DNA from: Psammoneis japonica
Taxonomy: Eukaryota
Assembly: GCA_008632985.1 (NCBI GenBank)
Contig: QPGO01000051.1
Location: 1 to 64,000, forward strand
Length of the DNA: 64,000 nucleotides
Direction of reading: 5' to 3'
Shown here: positions 1-57,269 of the stretch, piece by piece
Layout of the letters: each line of letters begins with the position of its first letter
Position numbering within the stretch: the stretch's first letter is position 1
Translations under genes and position numbers: made by a program
The notes under the pieces: generated by a model
Database searches by the model: none
What the model saw: only the letters and a program-made list of their open reading frames with translations
Told to the model about the DNA's origin: nothing

Positions 1-2689
1 ATTGAATCAATCATCGATCTATTTCATTGGTTGTTCAAACTGTAAGTGAAGACTTTAAGAGCCTACAATGAGAAGTGTGAGGGACACAATGAGGGGCAGC
101 AGAAGCATGCAGGAAGTGAGCAGGCATCGCGAAGTCTGCATGTAACACCGGCATCGTCTTACCATGTGTGTCCCGGGTCTCGCACAGACGCCCCATCGCG
201 GTTGATCCATCTGTCAATGATCACATGCATTGATCACATTGCTCACATCACAACATTGCAAACTGCACAATGGTCGATTGTTGTCAGTGTGACGTTGGCA
301 TCTTTCAGCAACATTTGCACAGCAGCACCGCACCAAAGTGCTCCCATCAAGGATGTCGTGTTCCAGGAGCTCCAGGTGGGACCTGGCAAAGCAGCACCTC
401 TGCTCTCAGCACAGAAGAGAGTTGGCTGTGTGTCATCTGGTCAGCGGGGCATCTCTTGAAGTTGCACGGGTGGTGTGAAGAAACAAGAGTGTGCACTCAA
501 TGAGCGCTGGAAACTGTCTGGGAAGCTTGGAGAGTGTTGAGATCTCGGCTCCTCCAGATGACGAAGCAGGCATCGAAGTGGATGCTGGAGTCTGGGCATC
601 AACTTTGAAGGGGGCAGTGTCAACAAGGCCCCAGCTGTCGCACCTCAGTTGGGTTCCTGGGCAGAAATGGAGGTGGTTGGCACCAACGGTGATGATGACA
701 GCATCTTTTTTGGCATTGAAAGCTGTGGCCATTGCTTTCAAAAGTGACTGTTGTGTCTCAGACATTGCCCGTGGCTTCTCTGGGCATGGGCTTAGAGAAA
801 GCAGCTTGATCTGTGAAGGGTCCAATGCGTTTCAGGTCTACGGCAGTGTTTGCCTGTGGCTTGATGACCTTGTCAATGAGCCAATGGTGCAAAATTGTGC
901 TGGCATTGTTGTGGAGACAGGGTGGTGCAAATCCATCTGGTGTGGCTGATGATGTGCCCAGGATGGCATCAGAGTGCATGCCATTCGGGCAAGCATGTGC
1001 ATCTTTGCATGCAGAGTTGAGGCTAAATTCAAAGAATGATGACATCTTTGTCTCAAATCAACAGCTTTGGTTGACTTGTTGGTCATGGCAGTGTGGTGCA
1101 AAAAATGCTGTGCAGAGCTCTGGTGTGTGCTCTGCAATGCCCTGTTGGCTGGAGCCACAGACAGTGGGAAAATTGGCAAGACGGAGGCAGTCATGTGGTG
1201 TTTTCTCAATGAAAAAAAAAGGAGCTCTGCAGCTGGCACAAACTTTGCTTTGCACTGGCACTTCAATGAGGAATGGCATGGTGACGAACAGACAGAGGGT
1301 CTGTCAGCACAATTCAATGCACACTGGGACAAAGATGATGACACGGTGCTGGTCAGAAAGAAAGCGAGCGGAAGCAAGAGAGGTCTGATGAGACCTTCTG
1401 CAATCTGTGTGTCCTTGTGTCTGTCCATTGGGTGTGTGACTGATGTGCATCACTGGCACACACTGCTCATGACTCAGTGGGCTGACAGGCAGGAAGATGA
1501 TGGCACAAAAGAAAAGCTTTTTTTCGACTTTGTTCTTGATGACAACAGCTGGCCACTGTGCCTTTTCCATGAGTTTGCATTTCACGGTTTCCTGCCTGGT
1601 GTCTTCTTTGAGAAGGTGACCAGCAAGCACTTTTGGTCTGCCTGAGTTTGCTCTCATTGCATTCTCAGATCATGAGCTTGTGTCACATCACCACTCAAAC
1701 ACAAACTGCCAGGGCAAGCACCCAGCTGGTTTGTGGCTTGCCTGTCACCCAAGTCAAGTGCTGGCAACATGGCAACAACACCAAGAAGCCTTGAAAAGGT
1801 CTAAAAACAAGTTGTCCAGGGACGAAGTGCAGCGTGATTGCATCAAATCTTTGGGCAGTGCTGCTGGTTTCTGAAGGGTGAAAGAGATTGGCATTTTGTC
1901 AATGATTGAAGATGACAACTCTGCAGGTTTGCACGATGAACTCAAGGCCAGTTTGCAACAACCAACGTTGAAAGGTCAACCTCAATCTGCGCCCCGTGCA
2001 ATCGCAGATCATCTTTGCACTCTTTGCCAGTGCAGTGCCATTTTGTTGGACTCTTGAGGGACAATGACAAGCTGTCGAACTTGTGACATTGGAAGATCCA
2101 ACAACATCATGTTTGTTGTGCCATCAAGGGCAAGTCCTCTTGCTGTCTGATGCGCTGGCGCTTCTTCTTTTCCGTTGCTTTGCTCCAATGGTGTGCTTTT
2201 CTTTTCCTTGAACACTTGTTGGCAATTGCAGGCAACAACACATTGCAGCTCTCAAGACTCTCTCCCTGCTTGCCATTCTGGCAGCCCCAACTCAGGCATG
2301 TCCAGCTTCATTTCACATTTTTGGTTCTTGTGAATTGGAGGAAAGCGAGCATCTCCAGTTTTTGGATTGACCCCCTTTTGCCACATGCAAAAAAGAAACT
2401 GCCATGTGGGAGCCGGGGAAGTGGCTGCATGTAGAAGCTCACCTTCAAGGTCAATTTTTGTCACAAGAAGGCCTGTGTTTGTGGAACATGCAATGGACTC
2501 AGTCACTTGATGGACACCAACTTCAATGAACGTTGGCTTTTTGACTTGATGGAGGGCAAGGAATTGAGCGTTGCCCAGGAAAATGGTGCCCCAGTCAACT
2601 CCAACAGAAGCAGGCTTCATTGACAGCATCACGATGGGCTCAATGTGGGTGAGATTCCTTGCAATCAAAAAGATGCTGTGAGCTTTTCC

Positions 2690-3300
2690 TGGAACCTTTT
2701 AACAAGGATGCCAAAATTGCTTGCAGCTGGTGGTGATCCGGGACTCTGGACCATCAACAATTTCCTCAGTGAGGAAGAGGTGGACAGGATGACAGAGTTG
2801 ATGCATGGGGTTGGTTGTGATCAAGGCATGTTTGGTCCATGTGCTGTCAGTGACCGAATCCCCAGTTCATGTTCATTGTGAGAGCAACACCAAGGTGTGC
2901 TTCAAGATCTCTCTGGAGAGCATTTGTGAAGGTCCTTGCCAGTTCTCCACTTGCAAACACGAGCCAGACCCCCAAAGATGCAACCTCAGTGGCCGAAATC
3001 AGGGCTGGGTTCAAGAGCTTGTGGTGAACTGAAGTTGAACTTGAAGAACACCTGCGACTCCAGCATGCTTTGAAAGGCAGTCCTCCTGCATCTGCCTTCA
3101 CAGCAATGACAACCAAGCTATCTTGCTGGTGTGCTCTGTCTCTCAGATGGTGACACACTGCTCTTCTTTCCAAATCTTGACATTTTGATCATCCCCAAGA
3201 AAGGGACAGCGGCAATGTTCCTCAGTTTGTGCAAGGATGGAAGTTGCAACCCCTGGCCAACCACTCAGATCAGGCCCATTCAGAAAGTGCTGGAGACTGC
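2690..3300 (+). pseudogene. Decayed prolyl 4-hydroxylase-like (2OG-Fe(II) oxygenase) remnant
   Basis: Fragments in different frames: LWTINNFLSEEEVDRM (cf. P4H 'hnFLSxeEcdxL') and DGDTLLFFPNLDILIIPKKGTAAMFLSLCKDG (cf. 'GGETxFP...vkPkkGdAlxF'). Confidence 0.55.
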
Positions 3301-4932
3301 ACCATGGCACTTTTTTTCTGTAAAGAAGAAGTCCTCGGAAGTGTGGTCTTGTTGGAGGTGGAAGTGCAGGAGAAAGTGCGAAGATCACTGTGGTTTGGTT
3401 CAGCATCACCGGCTGCATTGCCTGCAACAGCTGCATCACTCCCCGAGCTGTTTTTTGGCAGAACACCATGGTCAAGAAAAGGCTGCTGCCATGAAAACAA
3501 TGGGGTTGGCATGCCCAACATTCATGTGGGCAATCATTTGGCATGTTGACTCTTGGAGAACAGGAGATCTTGAAATGGCTTGCAAAACTTTGAGTCCAAT
3601 GACAAAGCATGTCCACCAGAACCAAAGCATGAAGAAACAATGAGATTTTGATGTGGAGAGGGGTCACAGTGGGCCCAGCATCTGCTCAGAGAAGTTGAGA
3701 TGATGGGGGGTGGACAAGGTTTGTTCCAAAGAACACAACTGGACAAAATTTGCAATTTCAACCTTTGGTCTCATGCTTTGTGTTGGAAATTGGTGCTGTG
3801 TTAAAAGCAGGCAGGAAATGCACACTGGCCACCTTCATTTGAGCAATGTGTCAAATGGCTTTTTTCTGTCTTAAGGTCCAACAATGTTGCCAAAAGCTGA
3901 CATGCTCACAACATGTGCAAGCATGAGAAGATGGAAAGCAAGACTCAGCAAGCCATTTTTCCAGCTTGAGTCACAGCCACCTTGGCAGCATCTCTGTCAC
4001 AGCAACCTTGGCCAAGGGCTCCAAGCTCCAAAGTGACAGCAACATGGAGCAAGCACTCCACAGAACCTGCAAATCATCCAGCTCCACAAGAATCAGAGTT
4101 GACAACAAGCACACATGCACTTGCTGCACAAACTGCTTTGCTGGTGAACAAAGCCAAGCTTCAGACTGCCACCCAGGAGCTCAAGTTTGTGGCTGCAGAT
4201 GTTGAGCCAACCAGCACTGCACTGGTGTGTTGGAAAAAATGAGGGCATTGTCAAAGTGCCAGCTGCAGCAAAAAACAAAATTGCCATGCTCCAGATTGTT
4301 GTCTTGCAGCAGCTGGCAAGGAGAAATTGGAATTTTGCATTGTGCACACAAGTCACTTTCTGAAGTGAGTGCTTGCATTGACTGCCATGGCCAGTCTCTT
4401 TCCAGAAAGAATGAAAAGTGCTCTGGAGCAAAATGAGAAAAAAGGAAGCTTGCTTCTCAAGTTGTGAACCTTGCTGAGTTGCAACTTGACAGCACCACCA
4501 CCTTGACCAACCAAAGCCAAGAGCAGGAGATTGGCAAAACAAAGAGCAACAGATCTGACACCTCAATGATGCTCTGGCACAAGAAGTGCAAGTTTCAAAT
4601 TAAACTCTGAGCATTGATCTCAGTCAGTTGTGGCTGCACAAAGTGCAGCTGCCAGTCATGTCAACCAATTGAATGAGCAGATTTGAGACTTCAGAGAGGA
4701 GAAAAGGAGCTGCAGGTGTGTGTGCAATGGGGGGTGCTGTTCTTTAGATTGAGTCATGGGGTGGTCTTTTCCAATCACAGTGCACCAGCATTGATGGTTT
4801 GCTGCACCACAATCCCATGGATGCATGAAGTGAGGTGCAGCACATTGCCACACTTGCATCTTTCCAACGTTGTCACATCCGCCGCACATGTTTGGGTGTT
4901 GATGGGAGCTGATGTGCAGACGTGTGCACAAC

Positions 4933-5185
4933 ACATGCATGACTTTGCATGTTTGAGCACCGTCATTCAGACAGCATTGTTGCCCTTTTTGTTGTGCACA
5001 AACAGGGCACATTTTCAAAGAATGTTGCAAACTTTTTGATGGCATTGTCTGGTGTCAACACATTGAACATGCATGACTTTGCATGTTTGAGCACCATCAT
5101 TCAGACAGCATTGTTGCCCTTTTTGTTGTGCACAAACAGGGCACATTTCCAAAGAATGTTGCAAACTTTTTGATGGCATTGTCTG
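4933..5185. repeat. Two-copy direct tandem repeat, period 134 bp
   Basis: acatgcatgactttgcatgtttgagcacc...tgatggcattgtctg at 4933-5051 and 5067-5185, about two mismatches. Confidence 0.95.
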
Positions 5186-5501
5186 TCATTCTGCACAACA
5201 AGTGTGGCACAGCAGCACACTGTCTTGATGCCAATTGGTGATCAGGGAATCACATCCTGGCATCAAACACAATCTCAACCAACCAGCCATGATGAATCCA
5301 GCAATGGCAGCATTGGAAATCACACCCAGTGGGTGCAGACAACTCCATGCTGTGACACCCAGTGCCAGGGGGAGATTCAAGAAATCTGGACGAAACCTCT
5401 GCCTCCAAGCGCGCGTTGCCTGATCGTACCGTACGCACTGTAGACCTCTAGATGCCCTCTTTTCGACTTCTTCAGTTCCCGGAACTATGACGTGACACGC
5501 A

Positions 5502-11697: not shown

Positions 11698-13700
11698 CTA
11701 TGTGAGATAGAACGCAGAGACTGCGTACACCATCCCGATCTTGAACTCTGCCATGTAACATCCGGCACCGCCAAGCATGCCGGGATCCCTAATTCTGAAT
11801 TTCCATGTGCCATTCTTGGCCATGTACTTCATGGTGCCACCACGCACGCCAGTGGCCTCCGAGGCGCCGTTTGATCCCAGCTTACTAACACGCACCAACT
11901 CCGGGCCACTTCCTTCATCATCCGTTTCTTCCGTGCATGAGTTCTCTACCTGAATCTTCAACACGAGTTTGCCGCCAGTGGCACTTGCTGCTTTCCCCTC
12001 CAAGAATGGGCTGCAAAGACGCTTCAAGCTCTTGCTTGGAACAGATGAATCAATCTCCACCCCACCCATTGGCCTCATGCTCTTTGTGGTCAGCTGGTTG
12101 GGAACCAAAGGGCAACTGTCGCAAGTGTCTCCAACGCCGTCGCCATCGCTGTCAGCCTGGTCAGGATTCAAAACCGAGGGGCAGTTGTCCCTGTCATCAA
12201 GAATGCCATCACTGTCAGCATCCCTGAGCTTTAACACAAAGAGACCGTGACCTCCATCGTGCCCCTTCATCATAAAAAAACAGCTCTTGATTCCAAGGCA
12301 TTAGATGGGACAGGCATGAAACAGAACCAATGACCACTTCTGAACTGCCAAGAGCACGATCATGTGCCCAAAGATCTTGCTGCTGTCCACTGTGAGCTTG
12401 GAAATGCAACTTTCCCCAAAAGGGTCTCTGACAACTTGGAGAAGAACCACCCCGACCGGGATTGACATCCTTTGTCATTTCTGTCCGGCGATGGGATCAT
12501 GCACCCACAGCTCTTCTCGATGCAAAAATCCACGGCCTTGAAGTGCAGCATTCCATCCATTGGCACGAAGTCACCTGGCAAAGAACTTCTTTGACCACAA
12601 CAGATGTCCTTCACCATCTTTGTTTCTCAAGTGGTGGGATCATGCACCCAAAGCTCCCATCCATGCACTCCATCAGTTGCAGAGACATGCAGCTTTCCAT
12701 TCGTTGGCACTAAACCACGAAGATAAAAACTGTGTTTGCCTGGCCTGATCTTGACCACATTTGTTTCGTTGTTGGTGGGATCATGCACCCAAAGCTCTTG
12801 TCCATGTGTTCCATCATCAGCAACGAAACACAGCTTTCCATCAAGTGGTGTGAGCCTGAATGGAGAAGAACCACGCCGGCCAGGATTGACATCCTCTGCC
12901 ATTTCTGTGCGCCCGCTGTTGGGATCATGCACCCAAAGCTCTGGTCCATGCATTCCATCATCAGCAACGAAATGAAAAATTCCATTCCCTGGGATCAATT
13001 CCCCCGGGCTGATGTCCTTGACCATCTTTGTTTCATTGTTGGCAGGACCGTGCACATCCAAAGCTCTCGTCCATGCAATCTGCGTTCGGCGGAGAAGTGC
13101 AGGCAGCTTTCCATCAACTGGCAGGAAACTTCCTGGATGAGAATCATGCCAACCGGGATTGACATCCTTTGTCATTTCTGTGCACCCGCCAATCAGATCA
13201 TGCACCCAAAGCTCTCGTTCATGCAGTCCATCACTGGCCGTAAAGAACAGCTTTCCATTCATTGGGATCAATTCCCCCATTTCAGAACTTGTCTCACCCG
13301 GCCCAATGTCCTTGACCATCTTTGTTTTGCAGTTGGTGGGATCATGCATCCAAAGCTCTTGTCCGTGCAATTTGTGGTCTGTGGAGAAATGCAGCTTTCC
13401 ATCAACCAGCGGCAAGTTTCTTGGACAAGAAGCAAGCCGACCAGGATTGACATCCTTGACCATCTTTGTTTTGTCAATGGTGGGATCATGCATCCAGAGC
13501 TCAGAGCTCTCATCCATGCCATCCATCATCAGCCACAAAGTGCAGCTTTCCACCCAGTGGAGTGAAGCTGCATGGAGAAGATTCACCTCCTCCACCTGGA
13601 TTGACATCTGCGACCATTCTGCAATTGCCGCTGATGTGATCATGTGCCCACAGCTCCCTCCCATGCATCTCTAAACATCTGCAGAAAAATGTGCTTTTCC
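11698..13700 (-). pseudogene. ELWxxDGT-type repeat (beta-propeller) protein with C-terminal thrombospondin type-3 Ca-binding repeat; 5' part decayed
   Basis: About 9-10 repeats of ~47 aa (HGxELWxHDPT...MVKDVNPG...GKL[H/C]F.ADDG) spread over several frames; [38 protein letters not shown] in ORF 11698..12273. Confidence 0.85.
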
Positions 13701-14079
13701 CTCCAGGGTGCAAACCAACACTCAACACATGCTTTTGAGCAGGCTTTTCATTCAGATGTCTTGCATGACATCATTGCTGGACACTTGCTCAAACACTGCA
13801 AAATTTTCTTGCAAGAGCCAGTCTCTAATTTGGAGCTGCAAGTCGTGTTTGATGGCTGCAAGCAACTGGACGGAACGACGCTCCTTCTCAATCACAAGGT
13901 CACAGGCTCCATGTTCTTTGTGGAGAACATCCCTCTGCAGACTGAGCTTGATTCAGAAACAATGACGGCTCTCAAGAGCAATGGCTTCTTGCAAAAGATT
14001 CAAAGCTCAAAGCACCCCACCTTGCCCAATGCAAAAAAAGTGTCTGTCACACTGGCTGATGATGGGAGCTCCTTGATCA

Positions 14080-14840
14080 AGTCACACCTGTGCAATTTCC
14101 AACAAAGAGTCCAACTCCTCCTGCAGCAACAAATGTGCCAACACGGGTGCTGACCAAACATCCCACATTGCCTCCATCGTGCACAAGCAGAGAGGTGTGC
14201 AAGGCTGAAAGTCAGGGCAGCAGCATTTTTGTTGATCAGGAATGCAGACCTCCCTTTGTGGAATGGCAAAACCTGCAATGCCTGTGCCACAGCAAGCAAT
14301 GGGAACACACTGCATGTTGTTGCATGTGGTGCTGGAACAATGTGGTCTCTCACATGTTGTCTGTTGCTTTTGGATGGTGTTGCCATGTGAATCAATCCAG
14401 CTGGGGTCACTGTCAGAATTCTGCGGCATGTCTCAACCCCTGAAATTAGAGCCTGAAATGAGTGAATGCTCCAAATGCATTTAAGGATGTTGTGGCAAGG
14501 AGCTCTGCTGTGCATGCATTCTCTCATTGCTTCAAAACAATCACGCAACTTCTTGGAACCGTTTGCAGCACAATCCACAGAAACCCAACATTTGGGATTT
14601 GTTGCATTCTTGTGTGGATGCAACCACAAATGTTGTGGGAATGAATCCTCTGTGATGATCTTTGGAAAGGAGCAACAAACTGGCTGTGATGGACTGTCGA
14701 AGCTTGTCAAAAGTGAGTGCTTGCAGAAAAGGGTCACACTGCTCTTTTGCACAATTGCAACCAATCACAACTGCAACGGTTTTCACATGTTTTGAAACTG
14801 CCACAATTTCTTCCTTCACAATCGTTTGACCTTGCATCTC
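14080..14840 (-). mobile_element. Possible decayed MULE-type transposase / SWIM zinc-finger remnant
   Basis: LLLLSKDHHRGFIPTTFVVASTQE resembles the MULE 'vdxxgxxxpvaf' segment; QQKCCCPDFQ...LCLC resembles a SWIM CxCxxF...C motif. Heavily mutated, tentative. Confidence 0.3.
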
Positions 14841-15149
14841 ACCGCCACAACAAAGTGCAACTCGCCTGCAGAAACTTTTGTGTCATTTGTTGTTTCCTCA
14901 TCACAAGAGCTGTGCTGTTGGGGCAAGCTGTTCCACACACTGCCTGCTGTTCTCCTGCTGCACACTGCATCCTCACTGTTGTTCCAATGCAAATTCAATG
15001 TCGGGTCTCTTGTTCTGCAACATGGCCAGGTTTTCAGCCAACAGCACATCAGCTTGCAGCCAACAAAGATTGGGCCGGCTTCAAACAAGAACAAGATTGA
15101 TGATGAACTCTTGAGGCAATGGTCCTTCATGATGCCTTTGCAGACCAAA

Positions 15150-15975
15150 CCAATTGTGCGATGCACAGGTGACACTCAAATGATCAACATTGTGAGAGAA
15201 AGAATGCAAGAAGAATCTGTGGTCTTGCCACAGCAGCCTCCATGGACCCAGCCCCAATGGACTCTTGATGAGTGCAGTGTCATTGAAGCAAAGGTCAGTT
15301 GTGCTTGGCAGAGCAGCAGACACTGCACTTTGTGAAACGAGGCAGTGCAAAACGATGACTCAAAACGACCCTCCTCACGCTAAAAAGGGCAGCCCTGCAT
15401 TGGACCCACAATGTTCTTGGGATGCCTTGATGCCACCAAACTCCAGCTCAGCTGCATTTGGGCACATCTGAACAAATGCAGAAAGGGATTGTGCATCATC
15501 CCATCAAGTTGATGTGTTGTTGTTGGGATCTGAAGCAGAAATTGCCAACTTTCGAATTTGTGCCAGTTGTCCAAAACAATGATTGACCGCAAATGCGTGA
15601 TTTTTCCACTCCGCTGATTGCAAGAGCAGCACAGTTTTCTCCAGAAGCATTGTTCCCAGTTGCTTTCCTGATGACATTACGGAAGGAGTCTGAAGTGCTC
15701 TTGTTGGTGAAGAAAATGTCAGCGATGCGTTCTTGGTTGAGCGATTCATTGTTGGGCACTTCATTGCACCCCCTGCCACAAACAGCCACTGTCTTTAAAT
15801 CATCCAAGGAAAGACAGGTGAATGTCTTTACCTTGCATTCCATTGGAAGACTGTCAAACACAGCAACAAAAGTGGTGTCTTCATCATCAACTTCATTGTT
15901 GTTGTCAAGACGCTGGCACTTGTGGCACTGGGTTTTGGCAGAAACATCCGGTGGCAACTTGCAAGTCATCATCAA
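15150..15975 (-). pseudogene. F-box protein pseudogene, copy 1
   Basis: FDSLPMECKVKTFTCLSLDDLKTVAVCGRGCNEV matches the F-box pattern (LPxExxxxIFxYLxxxDL); frameshifts downstream. Confidence 0.7.
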
Positions 15976-16367
15976 GAGACTGGACGACTGTGTTGATCAA
16001 ACAAAGGGCAGTTGACACTGCCTTTCTCAAACAGCAAGTGCAACACTCATCTCTCATCCCTCAACTTCCAACTTTTTGGGACTCCCTCAAACGTTTGACT
16101 CATCCGACCAAAATCGAAGGAAGCATCAGCAAGAGTGCACTTTGTGTGTTGAGTGTGCATCTGTTTGTGTGTGTTTTAAAAACATCAGATTGCTTTTGGC
16201 AAACTGGATGCAATCGTGATCATTGGCATCATTTGGACACCAGAGTGTGGCCACATTGATGGACAAATGTTTTCAAATGAAGAACGGAAGTCAAACGAAC
16301 ATGGGTTCTTTTCCTGCAACTCAGTGCTGGCAACTCCAAACTTCAGAAGTCTCTCACTTTCTCAGCT

Positions 16368-17132
16368 GTGATTGACAGAGCAAGTGTTGTCACCATGTCT
16401 GCTTGCCTTCTCTTCTCCATGTTTGAGATCACATCTTTGCTTTGATGAAGAGCTCAGCCGTCCTTGCTTGTTTTCTTGATTTTCTGACATGTCTTCATGA
16501 AAATCTCAAAAGTAAAAGCGCTCTGCATTGAGGAGTCAAAGGGTCTGTCCATTTGCCTTCCCATCCTTTTGACCATTTGTGCTGTCATCCAAGTTTGGTT
16601 TTTGAAAAAGACTCGCGAGACCAGTCTCCAGTGTGAACGCAAAATTGAATTGTTGAGTTGCCGCCTCAAACTTCAGGAGGAACTGCAACAGCATGGCAGC
16701 ACTTCTCTTCAAGGAATGGTGAATCGTCTCAAGCTCAAACAGGAAACTTACAAAATGTTGCATCTCGTTTTGACAAACGTTGTCAAAGACTCAGCCAAAC
16801 ACCCACCCTGCAGCGAATGGAAACTTGAGGATTTAAAACATGAGAGATCCGTTGGTTTGATGCACCGTCACCACAAGTGTCGCAAAGAAATCTGTGGAGA
16901 GTGGACCCTTGAAAAAGCTGAAATCCATCAAGAGCACAAGGGAGCCATTTGCAAGACATTGAGCAAGTTTCTCAAACGTGCTGAGGATGGATGCCCTCAT
17001 GGACCAAAGGCAATTGTGTCAAAAAAGACACAGCATGCATTTCGAAACCACGTTCAGAAAAAGAAAGCCGCCAAGGAAATGGGGGCCAAAATGCTTGAGC
17101 TCGTGCAGAAGATGCAGGCCTTGAAATTGTAA
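16368..17132 (+). pseudogene. Mutated paralog of the 18458..19513 membrane-anchored coiled-coil gene
   Basis: Shares KISKVKA, VWFLKK, one LQxERKIE...GSTSLQGMVNRLKL unit and the C-terminus; Tyr-free; 5' region disrupted. Confidence 0.75.
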
Positions 17133-17223
17133 AGAACAAGGTGAGCATGTGGTCAGTGGGCATCTTCTGGCACCCGACTCATTGTGGTGGTGCTGCTTCT
17201 GCTTGAGCAAGCAAAAAGCCATC

Positions 17224-18033
17224 ACGAGTGCGATGCTCCGGCGATGCTCAAACGCTCAAGATTGCCCAAGAAACAGCACAAGAAACTCATTTGATCATGC
17301 CACAGTTGCCCCCATGAACTCTCAAAAACAGAGTCATTGAAGCAAATGTCAGTTGTGCTTGGCAGAGCAGTGTCTGCTCTGCAAACTGTGAAAGCGGTGC
17401 AGTGATTTAAAAAAAACCTCCTCAGGCTCAAAAGGGCATGAGAGCAGGTGCCCAAAAATTCTCAGGACACCTTGATGCCATTTAGCTCCAGCCCAGTTGC
17501 ATTTGAGCACATCTGAACAAATGCAAAAAGGGATTCTTCGTCTTCCCATCGAGTTGATGCGTTGTTGTTGTTGTTGGGATCTGAGTCGGAAATCACCAAC
17601 TTTCGAACTTGTGGCAGTCGCCCAAAACCAAGACTGCGCAAGTGCAAGATTTTTCCACTCTGCTGATTGCAAGAGTGGCACAGTTTTCTGCAAAAGCATT
17701 GTTCTTGGTTGCTTTCCCAACAGCGTTGCAGAACAAGTCTGAGGTGCTCTTGTTGGTGAAGAAAATGTGGCGGCAATTCGTTCTTGATTGAGCGATTCGT
17801 TGTTGCGTGCTTCATTGCACCTCTTGCTGCAAACAGCCACTGCATTTAAGTTCATCCAAGGAAAGATTGGTGAATGTCTTTACCTTGCAATCCATTGGAA
17901 GACTGTCAAACGTGGCAACAAAAGTGGCATCTTCGTCTTGGGTTTCATCAAGACGCTGGCGCTTGTTGCGCTGGGTTTCGGCTTTGTCACCCGACGGCAA
18001 CTTCAAGAAAATGGATGAGGTAAATCGAAACAA
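17224..18033 (-). pseudogene. F-box protein pseudogene, copy 2
   Basis: FDSLPMDCKVKTFTNLSLDEL then frameshift to AVAVCSKRCNEARNNESLNQERIA; collinear with copy 1. Confidence 0.7.
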
Positions 18034-18457
18034 AGTTTAATTGATGCTGCCTTTCTCAAACAGTGACCACAATGCTCGGCAGCTCTCAAACTTACAACTT
18101 TTTGGGGTTTGGGGGTGTCGCGCATCTCATCACAGTCGCGAGATTCTCATTCAGATCAGCACCCCCCCTCTGACGTTTGACTCATCCGACCAAAATCGAA
18201 GGAACTGACAGTCCCAGTACCGGTATCAGAAGAGTGTAGTTTGTGTGTTCTATATATGTATTTGTTCTTGGATATTAGTGTAATTAATTTTCGGCAAACC
18301 GAGAGCAATCGTGGCCAATGAGCATGGTTTAGACAGAGGAATTTAAATATATTAATGAACAGATGTTTTTAAAATAGAACGGACGTCAAACCAACACGGA
18401 TTCTCCTGCTCGATCCACGCTGATAAGAACACAAATCGTCTCACTTTCTCTGTTGTT

Positions 18458-19513
18458 GTGATCGATAGAGCAAGTATTGTCACCATGACTGCTTACCTTC
18501 TCTTCGATATGCTCAAGCTCGCCATTATGGCTGTTCTTGTTGCTTCTATTGGCATGGAAATCCCTCTCGCTTTGTTCTGCGTCTTCGTTTTGACGAAGAG
18601 CTTGGCCGTCCTTGTTTTCTTGATTTTCCGACGCGTCGTTTCGAAAATCTCAAAAGTAAAAGCGTTCTTCATGAAGGGTCTATCCATTCGCCTTCCCATT
18701 CTTTCTACTGTTCATGCTGTCATCCGAGTTTGGTTTTTGAAAAAGACTGGTGCGACCATTCGCCTTCCCGTCCTTTCTACCATTTATACCGTCATCCGAG
18801 GTTGGTTTTTGAAAGAGAATGTTGCGACCAAGCTCCAACGTGAACGCAAAATCGAAGTATTGAATCGCCACCTCAAGCTCCAGGAGGAACTTCGACAGCA
18901 TGGCAGCACTTCTCTTCAAGGAATGGTGAATCGTCTCAAGCTCCAACGTGAACGCAAAATCGAAGCATGGAATCGCCACCTCAAGCTCCAGGAGGAACTA
19001 CGACAGTATGGCAGCACTTCTCTTCAAGGAATGGTGAATCGTCTCAAGCTCCAACGTGAACGCAAAATCGAAGCATGGAATCGCCACCTCAAGCTCCAGG
19101 AGGAACTACGACAGTATGGCAGCACTTCTCTTCAAGGAATGGTGAATCGTCTCAAGCTCCAACGTGAACGCAAAATCGAAGCATTGAATCGCCACCTCAA
19201 TCTCCAGGAGGAACTACGACAGTATGGCAGCACTTCTCTTCAAGGAATGGTGAATCGTCTCAAGCTCCAACGTGAACGCAAAATCGAAGCATGGAATCGC
19301 CACCTCAAGCTCCAGGAGGAACTACGACAGTATGGCAGCACTTCTCTTCAAGGAATGGCAAATCGTCTCAAGCTCCAACGTGGACTCAGGGAAGTCGCGG
19401 CGAAAAAGATTCCGAACGCATTTCGAAACCACGTTCAGGCAAAGAAAGACGCCAACGAAATAGAAACCAAAATGCTTGACCTCGTGCAGAAGATGCAGGC
19501 CTTGAAATTGTAA
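18458..19513 (+). CDS. Hypothetical protein: N-terminal hydrophobic helices plus five 36-aa coiled-coil-like repeats
   Basis: Open 351 aa frame (first ATG at 18485); repeat KLQRERKIEAWNRHLKLQEELRQYGSTSLQGMVNRL. Confidence 0.65.
   Translation: MIDRASIVTMTAYLLFDMLKLAIMAVLVASIGMEIPLALFCVFVLTKSLAVLVFLIFRRVVSKISKVKAFFMKGLSIRLPILSTVHAVIRVWFLKKTGATIRLPVLSTIYTVIRGWFLKENVATKLQRERKIEVLNRHLKLQEELRQHGSTSLQGMVNRLKLQRERKIEAWNRHLKLQEELRQYGSTSLQGMVNRLKLQRERKIEAWNRHLKLQEELRQYGSTSLQGMVNRLKLQRERKIEALNRHLNLQEELRQYGSTSLQGMVNRLKLQRERKIEAWNRHLKLQEELRQYGSTSLQGMANRLKLQRGLREVAAKKIPNAFRNHVQAKKDANEIETKMLDLVQKMQALKL
18830..19383 (+). repeat. 108-bp coding tandem repeat, five near-identical copies plus a partial
   Basis: Units start at 18830, 18938, 19046, 19154, 19262 and 19370 (partial). 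Confidence 0.97.
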
Positions 19514-20243
19514 AGATTTAGGAGAACGTGCGGTCAGTGGGTATCTTCTGGTACCCGACTCGTTGTGGTGGTGCTACTTCTATTTGAGTAAGCAAAAAGC
19601 CATCGAGTAGCTGATTTAACACGTTGACACTGAAAATTTGCAGGGGCGAGGGAGCGAAAGACACCTTCCACAATTATATGAAACGTTAGAATAATTCACA
19701 TTTCAAGACAAACGATACGTTCCATTTAGAATTATTTGTATAGGTACAATCGTCCAGACTCACAGAAACTGCCGCGTTAAAATCCTCGCAATAAACCGAC
19801 CACGTATCCCAGCGCTGCACCAAATGTAAAGAGTACGAGTCAATGATTCCAACAGCTCTTGTGTTTGGCCACGCATACCACATGCTGATTCGAATTGATG
19901 ATTCCAGCACCTCATGCGTTTGGCTGCGCACATAGCACCTCTTCCAAGCGTAAACCCGAGCGTCCCATCACGGCTGCTTCAACTCCCTTGATACCGGCTA
20001 CCGTCGAGTCCGAGTGATGTGTTGCAGCCACCAAGGCCACGATGTTTGGTCCTCCGACTACGAGTAGGAATCCTACCGTGGCCCCAATCGATGCGGCCAC
20101 CGCCCAACCCGATACCAACAACTTCATACCTCTCTGCTTCCTCCGAATACAACCCCCCTTTCACGTCGCGACTGAAGGATGGGTTTCCGCGACTGAAAAT
20201 CGAAAATTTCAATCTTTAGGCGAATGCCGAGCAAAACACTTGT

Positions 20244-20949
20244 TCATTCCAATTCATGCTGTGCCCATGGAATGCGATGAGCCGCGTATATGCCCTTTTG
20301 TGGACCAACCTTGAGTAAATCATGGTGAGCACCCGTCTCCACAATCGCTCCGTCCTTGATATCAGCGACTTTGTCTGAGAGCCGTCCTGTTGCCCACTTG
20401 TGAGATGACAAGATTATAGCAGCACCCGTTTGTCTCAGTGCAGCTAGAAATCTGGCCTCTTCTGCTTCCGAGATCGCTGCTGTAGTATCATCGAGAATCA
20501 ATATAGATCCAAACAAACATTTGTCAACCGATTTGTGTGATTTGGCTTGGTTGTCATTGTCGTATATCGCCTGAGCTAGAACTTTGGTGAGCAGAACTTT
20601 TGACCACTCTGAAGGAGACGGGAAAATCACCCGAGAATTCCTTGATCAAAGAAATGTCGTGAAAAGAGGAAGAAGAAAAGAGACGACGATCATGCTGGAC
20701 CAGTGTACTATTGCTCGTTCCGTGTATGTTCAAAAGGATGTCCGTCGTCTTGGTCGAGACGAGGTGATGCCACGAGAGCCGTTTTTGGGTCTGTCGGCTT
20801 GTCGTCTCGTACTGTAGAGAGGAAACGTCCTTGTCGAGAAGAGCTATCTTGCTTTTATTCGTGAAAAGGCCGCCACGAAGAGCCTCCGTTGCGCCCACGC
20901 CATCAAGGATGAGAATAAGACTCGGCAAGGCAGACCACAAGTGCCTCAT
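20244..20949 (-). pseudogene. Internally deleted ABC transporter remnant
   Basis: C-terminal NBD motifs ILILDDTTAAI (Walker B/D-loop), IILSSHK (H-loop), IKDGAIVETGAHHDLL..GIYA, preceded only by a short signal-peptide-like ORF; no TMD or Walker A seen. Confidence 0.65.
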
Positions 20950-21658
20950 GCTTTTTCTCGATAGACGAATATGCGTTCGGCGGAGAAGCGTTTTGAGGCT
21001 TGATCAACGGTGTTTGTCAAAGCTCAAAGCGACGACATGACAAATTGCGAGACAGATGAGGTGTGGCTAAAGGCGTTTGCTGAAATCACATTTCCCCTCG
21101 TGATGCACAGTAGAATGAGTGTTTTGCCGCCATGCTGGCACTTGGCAAACACTCGACAATCTCGTCACCCGCCCATGCACGAACTAACTCCCGAGTTTTG
21201 GATGATGGAATGTGGAGGAACCTTCAACGCGCATCATCATGGTGGACAGAACGAGTGGTTTCTCATCTCTAGAGAATATCCTTCAACGTTTACCGACGCA
21301 TCTATTCATCTGAATTCTCATCTTCTCATGCCCGCACAAAAAAACTATGGAATCCAAATCTAAATCGTGAGTTGCGTTTCTTGTTTCGACGACAGACGTA
21401 TGAGTAATGCCAATGTCCAATGACGGAATGACTGGCAGCAGTCACTCGTGAAATGGCATAAGAGTACACAATGACTCTCCTTAGTAAGTGTTATGAAAGG
21501 TCAGAAATGCGCAAATAAGCCCCTCTGAAGCACGACGCATTGCACGATGAAAACTTTTGTAGCCTTCGAGGAGGTCGTCGTCTCTTATAATTGTATTGTT
21601 TCTCTATCTGCCATTTGCTCTCTGCAATCATAATCAGACGAGCGGAAGAAAAGACAGC

Positions 21659-47589: not shown

Positions 47590-50500
47590 GTGATGAATTG
47601 TGGACAAGAACAACTCTCCAAGACCAATGCTTGCAGTGCCGGTCAGCACCTCCTCAACATCATCAAACCGCTCCTCGCCAGCATTAAACTCCAATTTCAC
47701 AGCATGGGTGCTGTCAAAACCAGGACACTTCTTCGTGCGAGTGGGGTGCCACCACCACCACCATGTGATTGAGTCAGCTTCATGCTCTCAAAGTCAGAGG
47801 AATCAAGTTTTGCCCAGCTGTCAATGCAGGGTTCTTTCAACGATCCAATCATCAAAAAATTGAGCACAATTGTGCAACACAGTCCTTTCCAAGGACTCCA
47901 TCTTGTTCTCCAACTCATCCTGCAGGAGGGATTCGCTCCAGTCTCCATCCCGCTCTTCTGATGACTGCAACTGCAGCGCAAGGTCAAACAAGACAATCAC
48001 TTGAAAGACAAAAAAGAACTGCTGTTGTTTGCCTGGAAGTTGTCAACACAAGCTTCAAACTTGCAACTGTTCTTGCAAACCAGATGGTTCACTCCAAAGA
48101 ATGAGACAAGCTGAAAAATGAGCGAGATTGGCAACAATCTGATCTGAGCACAAAGAGTCACCAAATCCACCACGTCATGATCTTCAACATCTTCTCTTCA
48201 ACACATTGGTCTCTCTTGAGGTCTGACATTCCCTTGGTTGCCTCTTTGCAGTCATCCTTCAAATCGGCAAAAAGCTGGCGTGCACCGTCCATTGTCAGAG
48301 CAGCTGATCATGTTGTCAAACAAGTGTGTCACACCATGAACACCCACTTTTCACAAAACACTCCACACAATCATGACAGAGTCTCTCTTTCTTGTCCTCA
48401 CTTCCCCAACCCCAGACCAGATCCATTGTCAAACCATTGATTGCTTTGGGAGTCAAGTCAAAGAGCTTCTTTTCTCTGCAGCACGACCACTCGCACGACT
48501 TCCATGCAGTCAGGTGAAAATTCACAGTGGAAGAATGACGCTGACTTCTTTGCATCACAAATGATGCTGTCATCATCCCTCATGAGTCCATGATGAGTCA
48601 TGATGATGTCAAGATTGGGGCTCTTGACAAGTGTTGTGAGGAGGGGGGTGCCTCATGCCCCACTCTTGTCCATGCCACATGGATGCAGACAAACATTTGA
48701 CTTGCCATGCTGGTCTTGAATGTCACTCTTGCTCAGGAGGGCCAACTGCAACTTGTTGCCCAATGATCTGGAAATGCACCTGTCCTTGATGCACTCTCCA
48801 TCACCAGGCAGCTGTGGACAATGGTGTGCCACACACCTTGCCTTGAGGCTCAGCTTCCAACAATTTGCCAATGTTCTTCTTTTTGGTCTTGGGAGCTTCA
48901 TTGGCCAATCTCTTAATTTCACACATGTGTCTCCAATCGTTGCAGTGGAGAACATTGGTGCAGCAGTGGACACATGCTCCACTGTCTCAGAGCTCCATTG
49001 TGCCATTTCTCCATGCACTTGCATCAACAACTTGTGTCCAATGTCACATTTGGGTCTTCTGCCCTCATTTCCTTGATGGAGTCCAACACCTGCTGCAAAT
49101 CCAGGGTGTCTTGGTGGAGGTGTGGATTGAGAGTCAGTGTCTTCCAGCTTCCAGTCACTCTTGTTCCACCTCTTCAGCTCTTCCATCACTGCTCTGCAAT
49201 CTTCAACCACTGTTTCTTACATTCTTGGGTTGCTCAGACCTGGGAGTCTCTCTTGACAAACTGGCCAACAGCTCAGTGGCCATGCCTTTGTGACATCGTG
49301 TCACAACACATGCAGAGCTCACATGAATCATTGTTGAAGTGGTTGATGTTCATTTGCAGCCACAGATTGTGGCTGGATGACCCATTCAGTTCAGTGCCCT
49401 GCTTGCCAGGTTGCAGAGGGATTTTTCACCCACATGTGTCAGAGTTCTTGTCTGATGACATAAAGAACAGGAAATGCTCCTTCCATGTGCAAAGTTGACA
49501 ACCCATGCAATGGCTTGTTTGAACTTTCAAAACTTTTTGCCTCGCAGTGGCTCAGTCATCAAGTCTCCAAGCACGTCATCAGCAGGACAGGCCCAGCATT
49601 GCACTCTTAGATTGCCTTCTTCATCTGGTTGGCAACAAAGAAATGCTGAATGCCGAGTGCTCTCAACCACTTCTTGCTGGCACTTTTGCTCCCATGGCTC
49701 CAACAACTTGGACTTAAAGGACTTGTTTGCCTTTTTCCAGGTTCACACATTGCCTGCACAGGTTGGGATCAATGCTCACCAGCATGTCAACCAACACTCC
49801 TGTGATCTTTGCCACAATCCATCTGGCCATTGTCTGCATGGGTGCATTTGGCACATCTGTGCTCATGACATTGCACTTGGCATCAACAATTGCCATCACA
49901 AATGTCCCTTCTGAGGATGCTGGTGGGGTGGCTGACTCATTTTTGCCTGGCCATTCTTGAGTTGGTTTCCCACCGCAACCCATTCTTTGCCCTTTGGTGC
50001 AACCATCATGTTTCTTGACTGGGAACATCAAGGCTGCTGTCGCCTTGGTCCTTTTAGTCAGAGTCATGTCCTTGACTGATGCTGGTGCAAAGCACACTTG
50101 GTCATGCAGTCATGTTTCATTTCTTTCGCTGAGGTGTCATGCCCCCTCTGGCCAAAGAATGCTTTGAGGCCTTCACGCAGCAGATGCTGCTGGGCAAATG
50201 AAATGCCCTCACCTGGTCAGAGTTGGCAGTCAGTCTTGCACACAAAGGGTGCCATTTCCACTGCTGTCTCCACATCACAGTTGACACCATCCTCTTGATT
50301 GGGGCTCAAGTTTGTTTTTTAAATGACGGCAGTGCTTGAGCTTGTTTTGCTCTTGTTGAACTTTGTTTTCTTTGTGCTTGCTTGATTTCATGTTCAAGAA
50401 GGATGATGCAGCACAGCTTGTGCTGCTCCTGCTTGCTCAGCCAGGCATGTCACTTGTCTCTTTCCCATCTGTTGTCTTCATTGGGTTGGTCAGCATCTTG

Positions 50501-53500
50501 TGATGCTGCAGCTTTTTTTGTGTTCCTCATCAACATCTTGATGATCTTCATTTTCTTCATTTCCACAGTCTCTGTCTTGTGCTTCTTGATTGCTGTGCTG
50601 TTGACTGGGACTGAACAATTTCTTCCACAGCCAGAATCTCATTTGCTTCTGCATGCTCATCATTGCTTTGAGTCTGCTTCTTTTTTGTGATCTTCATCAT
50701 CAGACTCGGTCACACAGTTGACATTGTTGTGATCATCTTTGCAACTGCCCTCCTTTCTGTTGCTTTCATTGCTGTCACTTTTGTGGTTGTCTGCTCCTGC
50801 AGTCCACTCAGCATCTTGTGGATTGTCTCAACATTTGCACGTGAATTTAAATTCCTTGAGATGCCTTGTTGTTTGATGGCCATCCTCTCAACTGCCTGCA
50901 CATGCACATCAGTCAGGGGTGCAAGGTGCACTTGCAGGGTTTCAACAGCTTGCCCATGCGCAGGTTCACAGCACAGTGTCCACCCTTGGGCAGATCAAAA
51001 TGTGGTTGCAGGCACATGCTGTCAACACCACGTGCATCCACAGTGTTTGTCAGGTTGTTCTCAATGCATGAGAAATCACAAATTTCCCAAACTGCTGAGC
51101 TGGAAGTGTTTGCAGTGATTGTTCCTTCATTGCACAACAGTGTGTGGAATGTGAGTGTCAGAAATCCCTTCATTCTTTGAGCACATGTTTGCACATGGCA
51201 GCATTCTTGATGACAGCTTGCTTGCACCACATCAACTTGGGTGTCATCTTGCATGGCACATGGTGTGTGGTGGCTTGAGTTTGCTCCTTGATGATCTGCA
51301 TGCTCAGCTCAACTTCAAGCACATGGTCTTTTGCATCATGGAAATCAGTTCCAGATTTCTTGAACTCAGAATCACACTCAACAAAGTCAATCTGCTTGAA
51401 CAGGGCTGTGTTGTTCTGTTGGAGAATCATGTCCAGCACTTCATGAATGTCATCATGTTTCTTGGACCTCAGTCTCATTCTTGATTGGCACTTGATTGTC
51501 TTGTCCCCATGCTTCCATGGTGTCAATGCAGAGGATCATGACTTTTTCTGCTTCTCGCATGTCTCAGGTGGTGTGACCATCATGCTGTTCCTCTCATGGG
51601 AATGGCACCATGCATGCTTGGCCTTGCCTTTTGCTGCACGTCTGTTGGTGGACCCAAAATGGCTCCCATCCTGTCCACCCCATCTCCCAGGCATGGTGCA
51701 GCACTTGTCCAAGGTGTCCACTCCTGTGCTGGTGGATGGCACAACCTTGACCTTCGTCAGATGCACATTGTTCACTGGTCTCTGGCTTGCTGCCATGCTG
51801 AGGGTTGTAGAGCCATTGGCAAGGATGAGTTCATCTGACTCAGTTCCCACACTGGCTTGGCTCAGGATCATCTCTGGACTCTCTCTTCATCCAGCTGGCA
51901 TCTGTGCCATGTGCACTTCTTGCTGCTTTGGCTTTGGCTTGATCTGTCAGATCTGGCAGCATCAGTGCTTGCACTGTTGCTGTCCATGGATGAGTTGTCT
52001 TCATCTTGTGTCAGTGGATGACTCTGTCCCTTGGCACCCAGTTTCTTCCTCTGGTGTTCCTGAGCCATTCATTGTGCACAATCTTGTTCTTGCACTTGCA
52101 GCCAGGGGACTTGTGGTTCAGCTCACCACAGGAGCAGCAGCACACCACATGGTTGTCTTGGTTGCCTGTCTGTGCATGACTTCAGTCAGTTCTTCATGTT
52201 GTTGGACCCATCATCACTTCTCTTGTGGCTGTCTCATTCCTGTTGTTTGAGCGCGCATTGCTCCTCTTGCCATGACATTTTCAAAGATTGTCATCTTTTG
52301 GATGATCCAGCAGTGCATCCATTGCCTTGTCTGGGGTCTTTGGATGCACGTCCTTCCCCAGGCTGCAATCTCTCATAAAACTCTTCTTCAAGCTCTTGTG
52401 AAAGCAATCATTGCTGTTCTCCACAAACTGCTCTTCTCCATGAATGGGTGCATCATTCATGCCTTGTGCGCGCTGCTGCCTTTGGGTCAAACTGGACAAC
52501 TTGATGTGCTCAATGAACCCATCCAGCATTTTTCTTCCCAGACTGTCACTTGTGGCAACTCACTTTTTGTTCTTTTGAATCTTGACAGGTGGTCATTCAG
52601 TGATTTGCACTCTTGTTGTTTCACTTCCAGCATGTGCTTCAGCAAGTCAAACAAAAGGAGGGGCTGATTCATCTTGAGCAGTGTCTCTGCCAGATCATCA
52701 TCCCCCCCAATGCTTGAGTGATTGGGGTTGCCTTGCACTCTCTGCTTCATCAGCTTGGCAAAGCAGTCATCCAGGATCTTGGTGAATGCAGCAATCTTGT
52801 TCTCTTTGAGCTTTTTCACTTTTTTGTTGTGGTCATGGAGCTTGATCTTGCGCTGGTGTTCCAGCTCTTTTTCTTCTTGATGTCTCATCCACATCTCAGT
52901 GTGCGGCAGTCTGTCTTTGATTTGTTGGTTGGCAACTCTGACTTGTGTGCATCTGATGCAGGTTTCTTTTCAATGAAATCTTTGCACTTCACATCTTCTA
53001 AGGATCTTGCCAGATGCAAACCTTGGTCACATTCCTTTTGAATGCAACTGACAACCTTTGCCTTCATCCTTGATGCCTCCACATGTTGAACTGTGAGCAT
53101 TGCTGTTTGAAGTGACAACCAACTTCATCTCAGTCAGGCTGAAAGCTTTTCTTCAGGTTGGTCTTGTTGTTGTTGTTGGAAGACTTGTGACCTCTGTCAC
53201 CTCTGCCTTGGTTGCATTGTTGGCCTCTGCCACTTGCTCTGCATCCTCCTTTGCTGCTCACAATGCAGAGTTTGAACATTGGATGAAACTGTGTGAAGGC
53301 AGTTGAAACAAGTGCCAGATGATGTGCTTGTGACTCTTTGGAGCAAATGTCAAACCAGCAAGTCCTTGTTGTCAAAAGGAAGTCCCACAAGGCTTCCTGT
53401 GCTGCTGGTTGCACTTGCTCTCACTGGCTGCTTTGGTGGCTGTGATTTGTCTGGAAGTCATCAACACAAACTTCAAACTGCCTCACAACATGACAGGTGC

Positions 53501-55340: not shown

Positions 55341-55621
55341 TCTACAAAATACAAGAGTCACGGAATTCCACGGAGAATTCGTCGGTGAACAATGCGCATG
55401 CTAACTCTAGTGTTTGTCTAAAAGGTCACACAATGTATGTACCGAAACCTTGAAGAGCCATCGTCATTCAATGGATGCCGAATGAGACTGACTCGTTGTG
55501 ACGATGCAGGATCCGCAGATGAAGGAGAAGCCATGCGATCGACAAGAGTATTGAGTCGGTGTTGTCGCTACCATATGTTGCAACATGTATATTCCTTACT
55601 ATTCACCTTGCCTACTGTGCT

Positions 55622-56963: not shown

Positions 56964-57269
56964 TGTCGCTCCACAAAATGAGAACTGTTGCGTTGAATCG
57001 AAGCGATCTTTTCGCTGATGGCTTGCAGGTTGCAGTGGGAACATTGATTTGCAAAATACCTGAAGATGTTGAATAAAACAAAAATTATTTGAATATTAGC
57101 CCTTGAAGATTATATTAAAATATCAAAAATTCGGTCTTGCATGCGCCCCACATCCCAGTCGCTCTACGCTCTCAGAATATATAAAAAAAATGAGGTCGAC
57201 CATGGCGACATTGCGCTCGTTATTTTATGAACCTGATGCGCTCTGTCACAAGGGAACAAATAATCACAA

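Follow-up and report, generated by a model that had tools for sequence, protein, structure and literature searches.

The stretch of DNA analysed here, 64,000 nucleotides (nt) at the start of contig QPGO01000051.1 from Psammoneis japonica (the window), contains sharply bounded domains in which the dinucleotide TpA has been converted directionally to CpA or TpG, and most CpG likewise, the remaining differences being ordinary divergence. We consider this reading, together with a deaminase acting in silenced chromatin as the putative cause, to be probable. The direction of the change, its confinement to domains, its independence of repeats, its action on both strands without runs and its graded dependence on the base following the changing adenine (the +1 base) are all borne out by comparisons within the sequence. 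An earlier reading of the bare letters (the sequence-only reading) had drawn attention to the loss of TpA from one copy of a duplicated 3' untranslated region (UTR); it did not stress the conversion of CpG or the dependence on the flanking base.

Tandem duplicate and the direction of change

Self-BLAST and global alignment delimited a tandem duplicate made up of copy A (15150–17223, plus strand), which lies wholly within one of the domains (block 2), and copy B (17224–19604, plus strand), which is in the block up to ~18100 and outside it thereafter. Because the duplicate straddles a domain edge, it appears to preserve the before and after states of the same sequence. The 73 nt at 17151–17223 (plus strand, inside) aligned without gaps to the 73 nt at 19532–19604 (plus strand, outside), with seven differences, 100% of them transitions. 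None of the five TpA found outside survives in the inside copy, where three read CA and two TG and 0 TpA are left; the other two differences were one CpG>CpA and one further T>C. Seven differences placed at random covered all five TpA with P ~3.7e-5 (1,000,000 draws). The label of 3' UTR for 19532–19604, predicted from the position of an open reading frame (ORF), is plausible, since the stretch begins 19 nt past the TAA stop of ORF 18485–19513. Further examples that the sequence-only reading had given, at 18458 versus 16368, were found in the pairwise alignment, and its comparison of a TATA-like run at ~18251 was roughly right, although the alignment is gapped there. Its statement that every TpA was converted holds for the 73 nt but not for the whole duplicate, in which 30 of 32 were lost and two kept.

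Tabulation by context of 797 nt of reliably aligned columns, with copy A inside the block and copy B outside it, revealed the directional loss of TpA that had been predicted for this comparison: 25 of the 32 TpA of the outside copy read CA (12) or TG (13) in the inside copy, two were kept and five read otherwise. The 40 CpG of the outside copy were kept in 14 cases and read CA in 7, TG in 14 and another dinucleotide in 5. In the opposite direction, none of the 99 CA (n = 48) and TG (n = 51) of the outside copy read TA in the inside copy. Sites outside TA and CG differed in 68 of 606 cases (11%), and the two copies also differ by indels. The CA and TG outcomes were interleaved along the duplicate and formed no strand-coherent runs of the kind that processive single-strand editing would leave.

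Conversion of TpA to CpA or TpG in the inside copy, the reverse of repeat-induced point mutation (RIP), was the direction put forward by the sequence-only reading, and three independent polarisations supported it. The first came from an outgroup, the family of a hypermutated coding region with ELWxxDGT repeats in block 2 (12627–13670, minus strand; TIGR04534, E = 1.8e-72, six repeats), for which 31,986 representatives were found at E ≤ 0.001. Across the 150 best homologues, analysis of the columns of 2,342 repeats anchored on the motif ELW revealed that the column eleven residues upstream of ELW is occupied by Phe (45%) or Tyr (36%) and hardly ever by His (0.13%) or Cys (0.38%). The six repeats of the window read CAT, CAT, CAT, TGT, TTC and TGG at that column; that is, the family has Tyr, and hence TA as the ancestral state, where the block has codons for His or Cys. 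The overall composition of the ORF compared with the family was shifted for Tyr (0.2% versus 2.6%), His (5.3% versus 1.1%), Cys (3.3% versus 0.3%) and Met (4.6% versus 1.0%), which is what TAY>CAY/TGY, CGY>TGY/CAY and ATA>ATG would give. In translation, an in-frame stop cuts the ELWxxDGT array and further repeats resume beyond it, so that the gene is a dead pseudogene.

The second polarisation came from the part of the duplicate in which both copies lie in the block. There, CA opposite TG was the most frequent adjacent double difference (14 of 46, or 13 by a stricter count; the next type numbered 4). Such discordance points to ancestral TA or CG sites that changed separately in each copy after the duplication; an ancestral CA or TG is disfavoured, since two simultaneous changes are unexpected. 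The third was the mass balance of dinucleotides across the blocks, given below. On these three patterns we regard the polarity as settled in favour of an ancestral TA. Neither of two other sources yielded an outgroup: the orphan ORF 18485–19513 had no homologue among proteins of 188–599 amino acids (aa), and a search by synteny through the neighbouring mitochondrial carrier gave no relative in the metagenome scan.

The ORF of copy B just mentioned (18485–19513, plus strand) is intact, encodes 342 aa and lies outside the block. At 18829–19382 it contains 5.1 tandem copies of a 108-nt unit with 97% identity, of which copy A has one diverged unit, and the array looks like a recent internal expansion. 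Its counterpart in copy A (16488–17132, plus strand) retains the frame and the same TAA stop, with 36% identity over 298 columns; its N-terminal part is lost, the frame from the upstream ATG ends at a TGA, and it has probably decayed.

TpA- and CpG-stripped blocks across the window

Profiles at 1-kb and 100-nt resolution revealed four blocks of 2.5–7.8 kb each, covering about one third of the window, in which the observed-to-expected ratio (o/e) of TpA was 0.00–0.14, that of CpG 0.04–0.6 and that of CpA and TpG 1.5–2.3. Between the blocks, the corresponding values were 0.4–0.7 for TpA, ~1.0 for CpG and ~1.1 for CA/TG. Block 1 (100–5400; TA o/e 0.03–0.14, CG o/e 0.09–0.40, CA/TG o/e 1.6–2.0) has its left end at or near the start of the window, or continues beyond it, and a right edge that is sharp to within 100 nt, positions 5300–5399 containing 0 TA and 1 CG and positions 5400–5499 containing 5 TA and 10 CG. 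Block 2 (11950–18100) takes in copy A and extends over the left half of copy B. On the left it ends within or beside an ORF with thrombospondin type 3 repeats; at its right edge, TA numbered 0–3 per 100 nt up to 18199 (0 at 18100–18199) and 11 at 18200–18299, where a divergent promoter region separates the decayed minus-strand ORF of copy B from the intact ORF 18485–19513. Block 3 (47600–55350; TA o/e 0.00–0.07, CG o/e 0.04–0.18) has the lowest CpG of the four, and block 4 (61180–63700; TA o/e 0.05–0.06, CG o/e 0.48–0.62) is only half depleted of CpG. Three of the block edges fall within ~100–200 nt, and the remainder are more gradual. Since the loss of TpA is saturated in every block and that of CpG differs from block to block, the process acting on TpA is faster than that acting on CpG.

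Apart from these dinucleotides, the blocks resemble their surroundings. G+C content was the same within and outside the blocks (47.8%), and trinucleotides that contain none of TA, CG, CA and TG occurred within blocks at 0.76–1.25 of their outside density. When sites were divided into purine/pyrimidine flank classes, the TA and CG lost and the CA/TG gained per kb were 40.7 and 38.8, 19.6 and 20.8, and 16.3 and 17.4, the outside set for this balance including positions 54800–55350, which were later assigned to block 3. Because of the unchanged G+C, the unchanged other trinucleotides and this mass balance, the blocks appear to be sequence of native type, rewritten at two dinucleotides and hardly anywhere else. 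Raw CA and TG counts per kb were balanced, with no strand bias.

The blocks share no similarity with one another. Block 2 includes unique DNA (12000–15150) and all of copy A but only the left half of copy B. Since copy B is untouched in its right half, unique DNA is affected and the blocks are not mutual repeats, the comparison indicates that the unit affected is a stretch of chromosome rather than a sequence family, and that the process is not triggered by repeats. A search of the window for tRNA genes, Rfam families and boundary elements found none. As a control for specificity, the signature was present in 0 of 1,800 1-kb windows from 80 eukaryote-like metagenome loci (963 kb); these loci encode a relative of the helicase of the window, and as only three are ≥58% identical to the query, the control is uninformative on close relatives. 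The metagenome windows with low TpA belonged to loci of ~60–77% G+C and exhibited no CA/TG excess.

Two local features of the blocks may be added. In block 1, positions 4933–5185 comprise 1.9 copies of a 134-nt unit with 98% identity, both copies being devoid of TA, and this duplication seems to be younger than the hypermutation of the block. In block 3, positions 49001–53000 exhibit a strong excess of T over A (AT skew −0.18 to −0.33), with raw CA and TG roughly balanced.

With regard to gene content, the window is intron-poor and eukaryotic, with genes for a mitochondrial carrier, an ASCC3-like helicase, a formate dehydrogenase and an STI1-like protein, and the regions between blocks contain intact conserved genes. 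The closest organism-named relatives of the formate dehydrogenase are from Pseudictyota dubia (81%) and Attheya (79%), and those of the helicase from Amphora (59%) and Mayamaea (58%), all of them diatoms; no match was above 85% identity. The blocks (~20 kb) contain 97 ORFs of ≥90 aa on both strands, long ORFs being abundant there because TAA and TAG are almost absent. Pfam analysis of 47 of these ORFs gave sub-threshold matches only, apart from TSP_3 at a block edge. This match belongs to the ORF with thrombospondin type 3 repeats (11698–12300, minus strand; PF02412, E = 3.2e-8, with NCBIfam matches), which straddles the left edge of block 2. On the minus strand, at least seven ELWxxDGT repeats at 12301–13670 are followed by these thrombospondin repeats at 11698–12300. 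The sole organism-named relative of the ELWxxDGT gene among ten looked up is from a Pirellulales bacterium, and the ELWxxDGT/thrombospondin gene may have been acquired horizontally.

The sequence of block 2 was also compared with public reads. One run contained 79% of the sampled words of 14000–21000, and unitigs at a word depth of ~33x (31-letter words) matched 14000–15024, 15100–15544, 15689–16717 and 17106–17977 with 0 differences, which argues against consensus or basecalling error. Other contigs of the run, with depths 2–7 times that of the base level, were 85–95% alike to the minus-strand part of the duplicate at 15400–16000 and 17850–17980, and one of them has an inserted stretch with TpA. 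In view of these contigs and their raised depth, the decayed minus-strand ORF of the duplicate appears to belong to a multi-copy family with further paralogues elsewhere in the genome.

Dependence on the flanking base

To describe the sequence context of the loss, inside/outside density ratios were calculated for the ten strand-symmetric NTAN classes, with positions 54800–55350 left out of the outside set. The ratio was highest for TTAA (0.585) and decreased through CTAA/TTAG (0.287), GTAA/TTAC (0.095), CTAC/GTAG (0.044), ATAA/TTAT (0.027), GTAC (0.017) and ATAG/CTAT (0.011) to 0 for ATAT (0 inside, 106 outside), ATAC/GTAT (0 inside, 237 outside) and CTAG (0 inside, 63 outside). By hand calculation, a model that multiplies one survival factor per strand, dependent on the base that follows A, fits nine of the ten classes, with values of ~0.77 (A), ~0.38 (G), ~0.12 (C) and ~0.035 (T). 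At the level of trinucleotides, the inside/outside ratios were 0.01 for TAT, 0.04 for TAC, 0.08 for TAG and 0.19 for TAA. These densities indicate an order of loss TAT > TAC > TAG > TAA, in which the A of the changing pair precedes T > C > G >> A; in equivalent wording, the T of the changing pair would be preceded by A > G > C >> T.

The outcome of the change in the duplicate followed the flanks as well. YTAY became TG in 4 cases and CA in 0, and RTAR became CA in 4 cases and TG in 1; counted per strand, A>G had occurred at 18 of 36 TAY and 7 of 28 TAR. On the scale of blocks, the excess of YTGY/RCAR over RTGR/YCAY per kb was 17.7 ± 15 inside (18 windows) and 5.0 ± 11.4 outside (41 windows; P = 5.5e-4), the outside set here including 54800–55350. 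A>G at AAY was seen at 10 of 63 positions in the duplicate, and AAT and AAC were not depleted in the blocks (ratios 0.86 and 1.03). Selection for stop codons was tried as an account of the retained TAA and TAG and rejected in favour of the flank rule, the frames upstream of them having a median length of 25 codons compared with 20 before TGA (P = 0.05). An influence of the 5' base on CpG loss was considered and set aside: the ratio was lowest for TCGA (0.118) and highest for CCGG and GCGC (~0.44), a product model fits these values poorly, and no clear effect was found in the duplicate.

Known systems, candidate mechanism and alternatives

A full-text literature search for this signature returned a single preprint, on the chlorarachniophyte Bigelowiella natans, and no diatom paper. 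The available part of that preprint describes TpA-targeted hypermutation of integrated DNA of nucleocytoplasmic large DNA viruses (NCLDV) and virophages (Mettrop et al., bioRxiv 10.64898/2026.01.13.699255). Two integrated viral regions accounted for 231 of the 302 new mutations recorded in mutation-accumulation lines; with one exception these 231 changes were A>G or T>C, and each of the 230 was on TpA, the rate being ~6e-7 per site per generation, within a range of ~1e-7 to 1e-6 in culture (bioRxiv 10.64898/2026.01.13.699255). An ADAT2-like deaminase is proposed, DNA editing by amphioxus and trypanosome ADAT2 is cited, and the Discussion points to a 5' U preference in ADAR-type and fungal ADAT-type RNA editing (bioRxiv 10.64898/2026.01.13.699255). 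As far as this text goes, the two systems share A:T>G:C transitions at TpA, giving TpG or CpA on either strand, and confinement to discrete regions on the kb scale. They differ in that TpA is saturated in the window (o/e 0.00–0.14), compared with a rho of 0.45 in the NCLDV region of B. natans, and in that 21 of 40 CpG became CA or TG in the window, with CG o/e of 0.04–0.6 in blocks, whereas the hypermutable regions of B. natans have almost no G:C>A:T. The targets in B. natans are viral, whereas the blocks of the window have no detectable viral or transposon domain in the 47 of 97 ORFs scanned; TpA makes up ~3.7% of dinucleotides outside the blocks and 6.0% in B. natans; the host is diatom-like rather than a chlorarachniophyte; and de novo events were recorded in B. 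natans, whereas the window is known from its sequence footprint alone. The words 'CpG', 'trinucleotide', 'flanking' and 'diatom' do not occur in the part of the preprint available, and the flank rule is measurable in the window only. So far, then, the footprint has been reported in print once before, in an unrelated alga, and the window is best regarded as a further case, in a diatom-like genome.

Other processes resemble the footprint in part. Like RIP in ascomycete fungi, it is specific to a dinucleotide, consists of transitions only, affects both strands over whole regions and destroys genes. However, RIP turns CpA into TpA, the opposite of what is seen here (0 of 99 CA/TG read TA), and it needs duplicates and hits both copies, whereas half of the duplicate is spared here and unique DNA is hit. 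The CpG component is like decay by deamination of 5-methylcytosine, with CpG>TpG/CpA and a matching gain of TpG/CpA, slower than the loss of TpA and uneven by block; such decay cannot yield the loss of TpA. ADAR prefers a 3' G, and hyper-editing by ADAR leaves strand-coherent clusters of A>G, in contrast to the interleaved and balanced CA and TG seen here with 3' T > C > G > A. The natural substrate of ADAT2/ADAT3 and of TadA is A34 of tRNA preceded by U33, that is 5'-U-A, which parallels the TpA target and makes this class of enzyme a candidate; no such gene lies within the window.

Conversion of TpA to CpA or TpG amounts to A:T>G:C at one of the two base pairs. As we know of no simple chemistry that converts T to C, the TpA component would be due to enzymatic deamination of adenine in DNA, and an ADAT2/TadA-like enzyme is likely because the tRNA substrate of that family is also U-A. 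The available text on B. natans argues likewise, and by analogy with the proposal made there, the deaminase may be directed at silenced chromatin (bioRxiv 10.64898/2026.01.13.699255). The CpG component, which is slower, could then be put down to 5-methylcytosine deaminating in the ordinary way, on the premise that the same domains are silenced and also methylated. One enzyme might act on both A and C, but the data do not call for it.

Among the alternatives, we consider it unlikely that thymine is the base attacked, with an oxidase of the TET/JBP type producing 5-hydroxymethyl- or 5-formyluracil or an adduct like base J at TpA, which would mispair with G and give T>C. The sequence cannot tell which base of the pair was attacked, and the flank rule fits equally a T preceded by A > G > C >> T; in kinetoplastids and dinoflagellates, the systems that modify T act preferentially on T before A, and 5-formyluracil induces A:T>G:C mutations. 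Against this, the near-complete conversion needs a very high rate of mispairing, and the 2-oxoglutarate-Fe(II) (2OG-Fe(II)) oxygenase encoded in the window is of the prolyl-hydroxylase type rather than TET/JBP. The gene for this oxygenase is at 55755–57044 on the minus strand (PF13640, E = 9.9e-11), ~400 nt from the right edge of block 3.

That the blocks are foreign insertions, or selected sequence with an inherent avoidance of TA and CG like that of many RNA viruses, we regard as very unlikely. Only one host gene can be recognised in the blocks, from a family that is mainly bacterial, and avoidance of CpG and UpA is known in viruses according to the part of that literature available; however, one block edge runs through a tandem duplicate, the other half of which is normal, the mass balance and the other trinucleotides fit conversion of native-like sequence, and the retained TAA and TAG are not tied to long upstream ORFs.

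We likewise give little credence to an artefact in which heavy base modification was misread by the sequencer or polisher and the TA-less sequence is not the true DNA. Systematic miscalls at modified sites could give rise to changes that are confined to domains, affect both strands and consist only of transitions at palindromic dinucleotides, and the assembly may itself have been built from the sole run that contains the stretch. Yet the unitigs match up to 1,025 nt of block without differences, unlike noisy reads, the duplicate copies also differ by indels and at 11% of other sites, the loss of CpG varies by block while that of TpA is saturated, and the gene within block 2 has truly decayed, with an in-frame stop.

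Hyper-editing of A to I in double-stranded RNA from the blocks, followed by reverse transcription or templated repair, is about as improbable. It shares the 5' U preference common to ADAR-type and fungal ADAT-type editing, as noted in the Discussion referred to above. However, the blocks are unchanged in position, still extend from promoter to promoter and still include their non-coding parts, and changes on the two strands interleave at the scale of nucleotides. The loss of CpG would be left unexplained, and the 3' T/C preference is opposite to the 3' G of ADAR. Finally, the polarity of classical RIP, with CA/TG ancestral and the outside copy gaining TpA through C>T at CpA, could appeal to the bare pairwise difference, which is directionless in itself, and it was excluded almost beyond doubt by Tyr in the family against His and Cys in the block and by the CA/TG discordance between two inside copies, in keeping with the TA o/e of 0.4–0.7, the CA/TG o/e of ~1.1 and the intact conserved genes outside the blocks and with the loss of CpG in the blocks, which is not an effect of RIP.

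Several observations weigh against domain-wise adenine deamination, or against parts of it. No viral or transposon domain scored above the Pfam cut-off in the block ORFs scanned, a scan of ORFs of ≥90 aa from which decayed domains in shorter frames could escape, and the domain content of the blocks does not by itself point to foreign DNA as the target, the logic that applies in B. natans. The CpG component is a feature unmatched in the available text on B. natans. With regard to the flank rule, CTAG was retained 0 times where the product model expects ~4–5, and both TpA kept in copy A are in GTAAA, which is half-susceptible by the simple rule. All six ELWxxDGT repeats have CAT at a second column, which is odd for independent events; this column may be native His. 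The reads come from one sample and study, perhaps the source of the assembly itself, and so may not be independent of it. The steps of deaminase and silenced domain are ones that we infer.

The finding would have practical consequences. Gene finders would probably call many of the ORFs in blocks as orphan genes, and homology searches would miss decayed genes because Tyr is replaced by His or Cys, and Arg by Cys, His or Trp. As far as the available text on B. natans allows the comparison, the saturated blocks supply enough events to determine sequence specificity, which the mutation-accumulation study was unable to provide, and the order TAT > TAC > TAG > TAA provides a direct and cheap test of candidate enzymes and of whether the process is shared between both organisms. 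If true, TpA-directed hypermutation is not peculiar to one chlorarachniophyte and shapes about one third of a 64-kb diatom-like stretch. More speculatively, and with considerable doubt on our part, diatom-like algae might possess a DNA-editing system directed at chromatin domains, akin to that of B. natans and perhaps ancient in the Stramenopiles–Alveolates–Rhizaria (SAR) group, that erases TpA through the preference 5'-T-A-[T>C>G>>A] in unique and duplicated DNA alike, within borders as sharp as promoters and maybe with one deaminase for both TpA and CpG; by deleting two of the three stop codons, such a system may leave long frames that seed spurious or newborn orphan genes.

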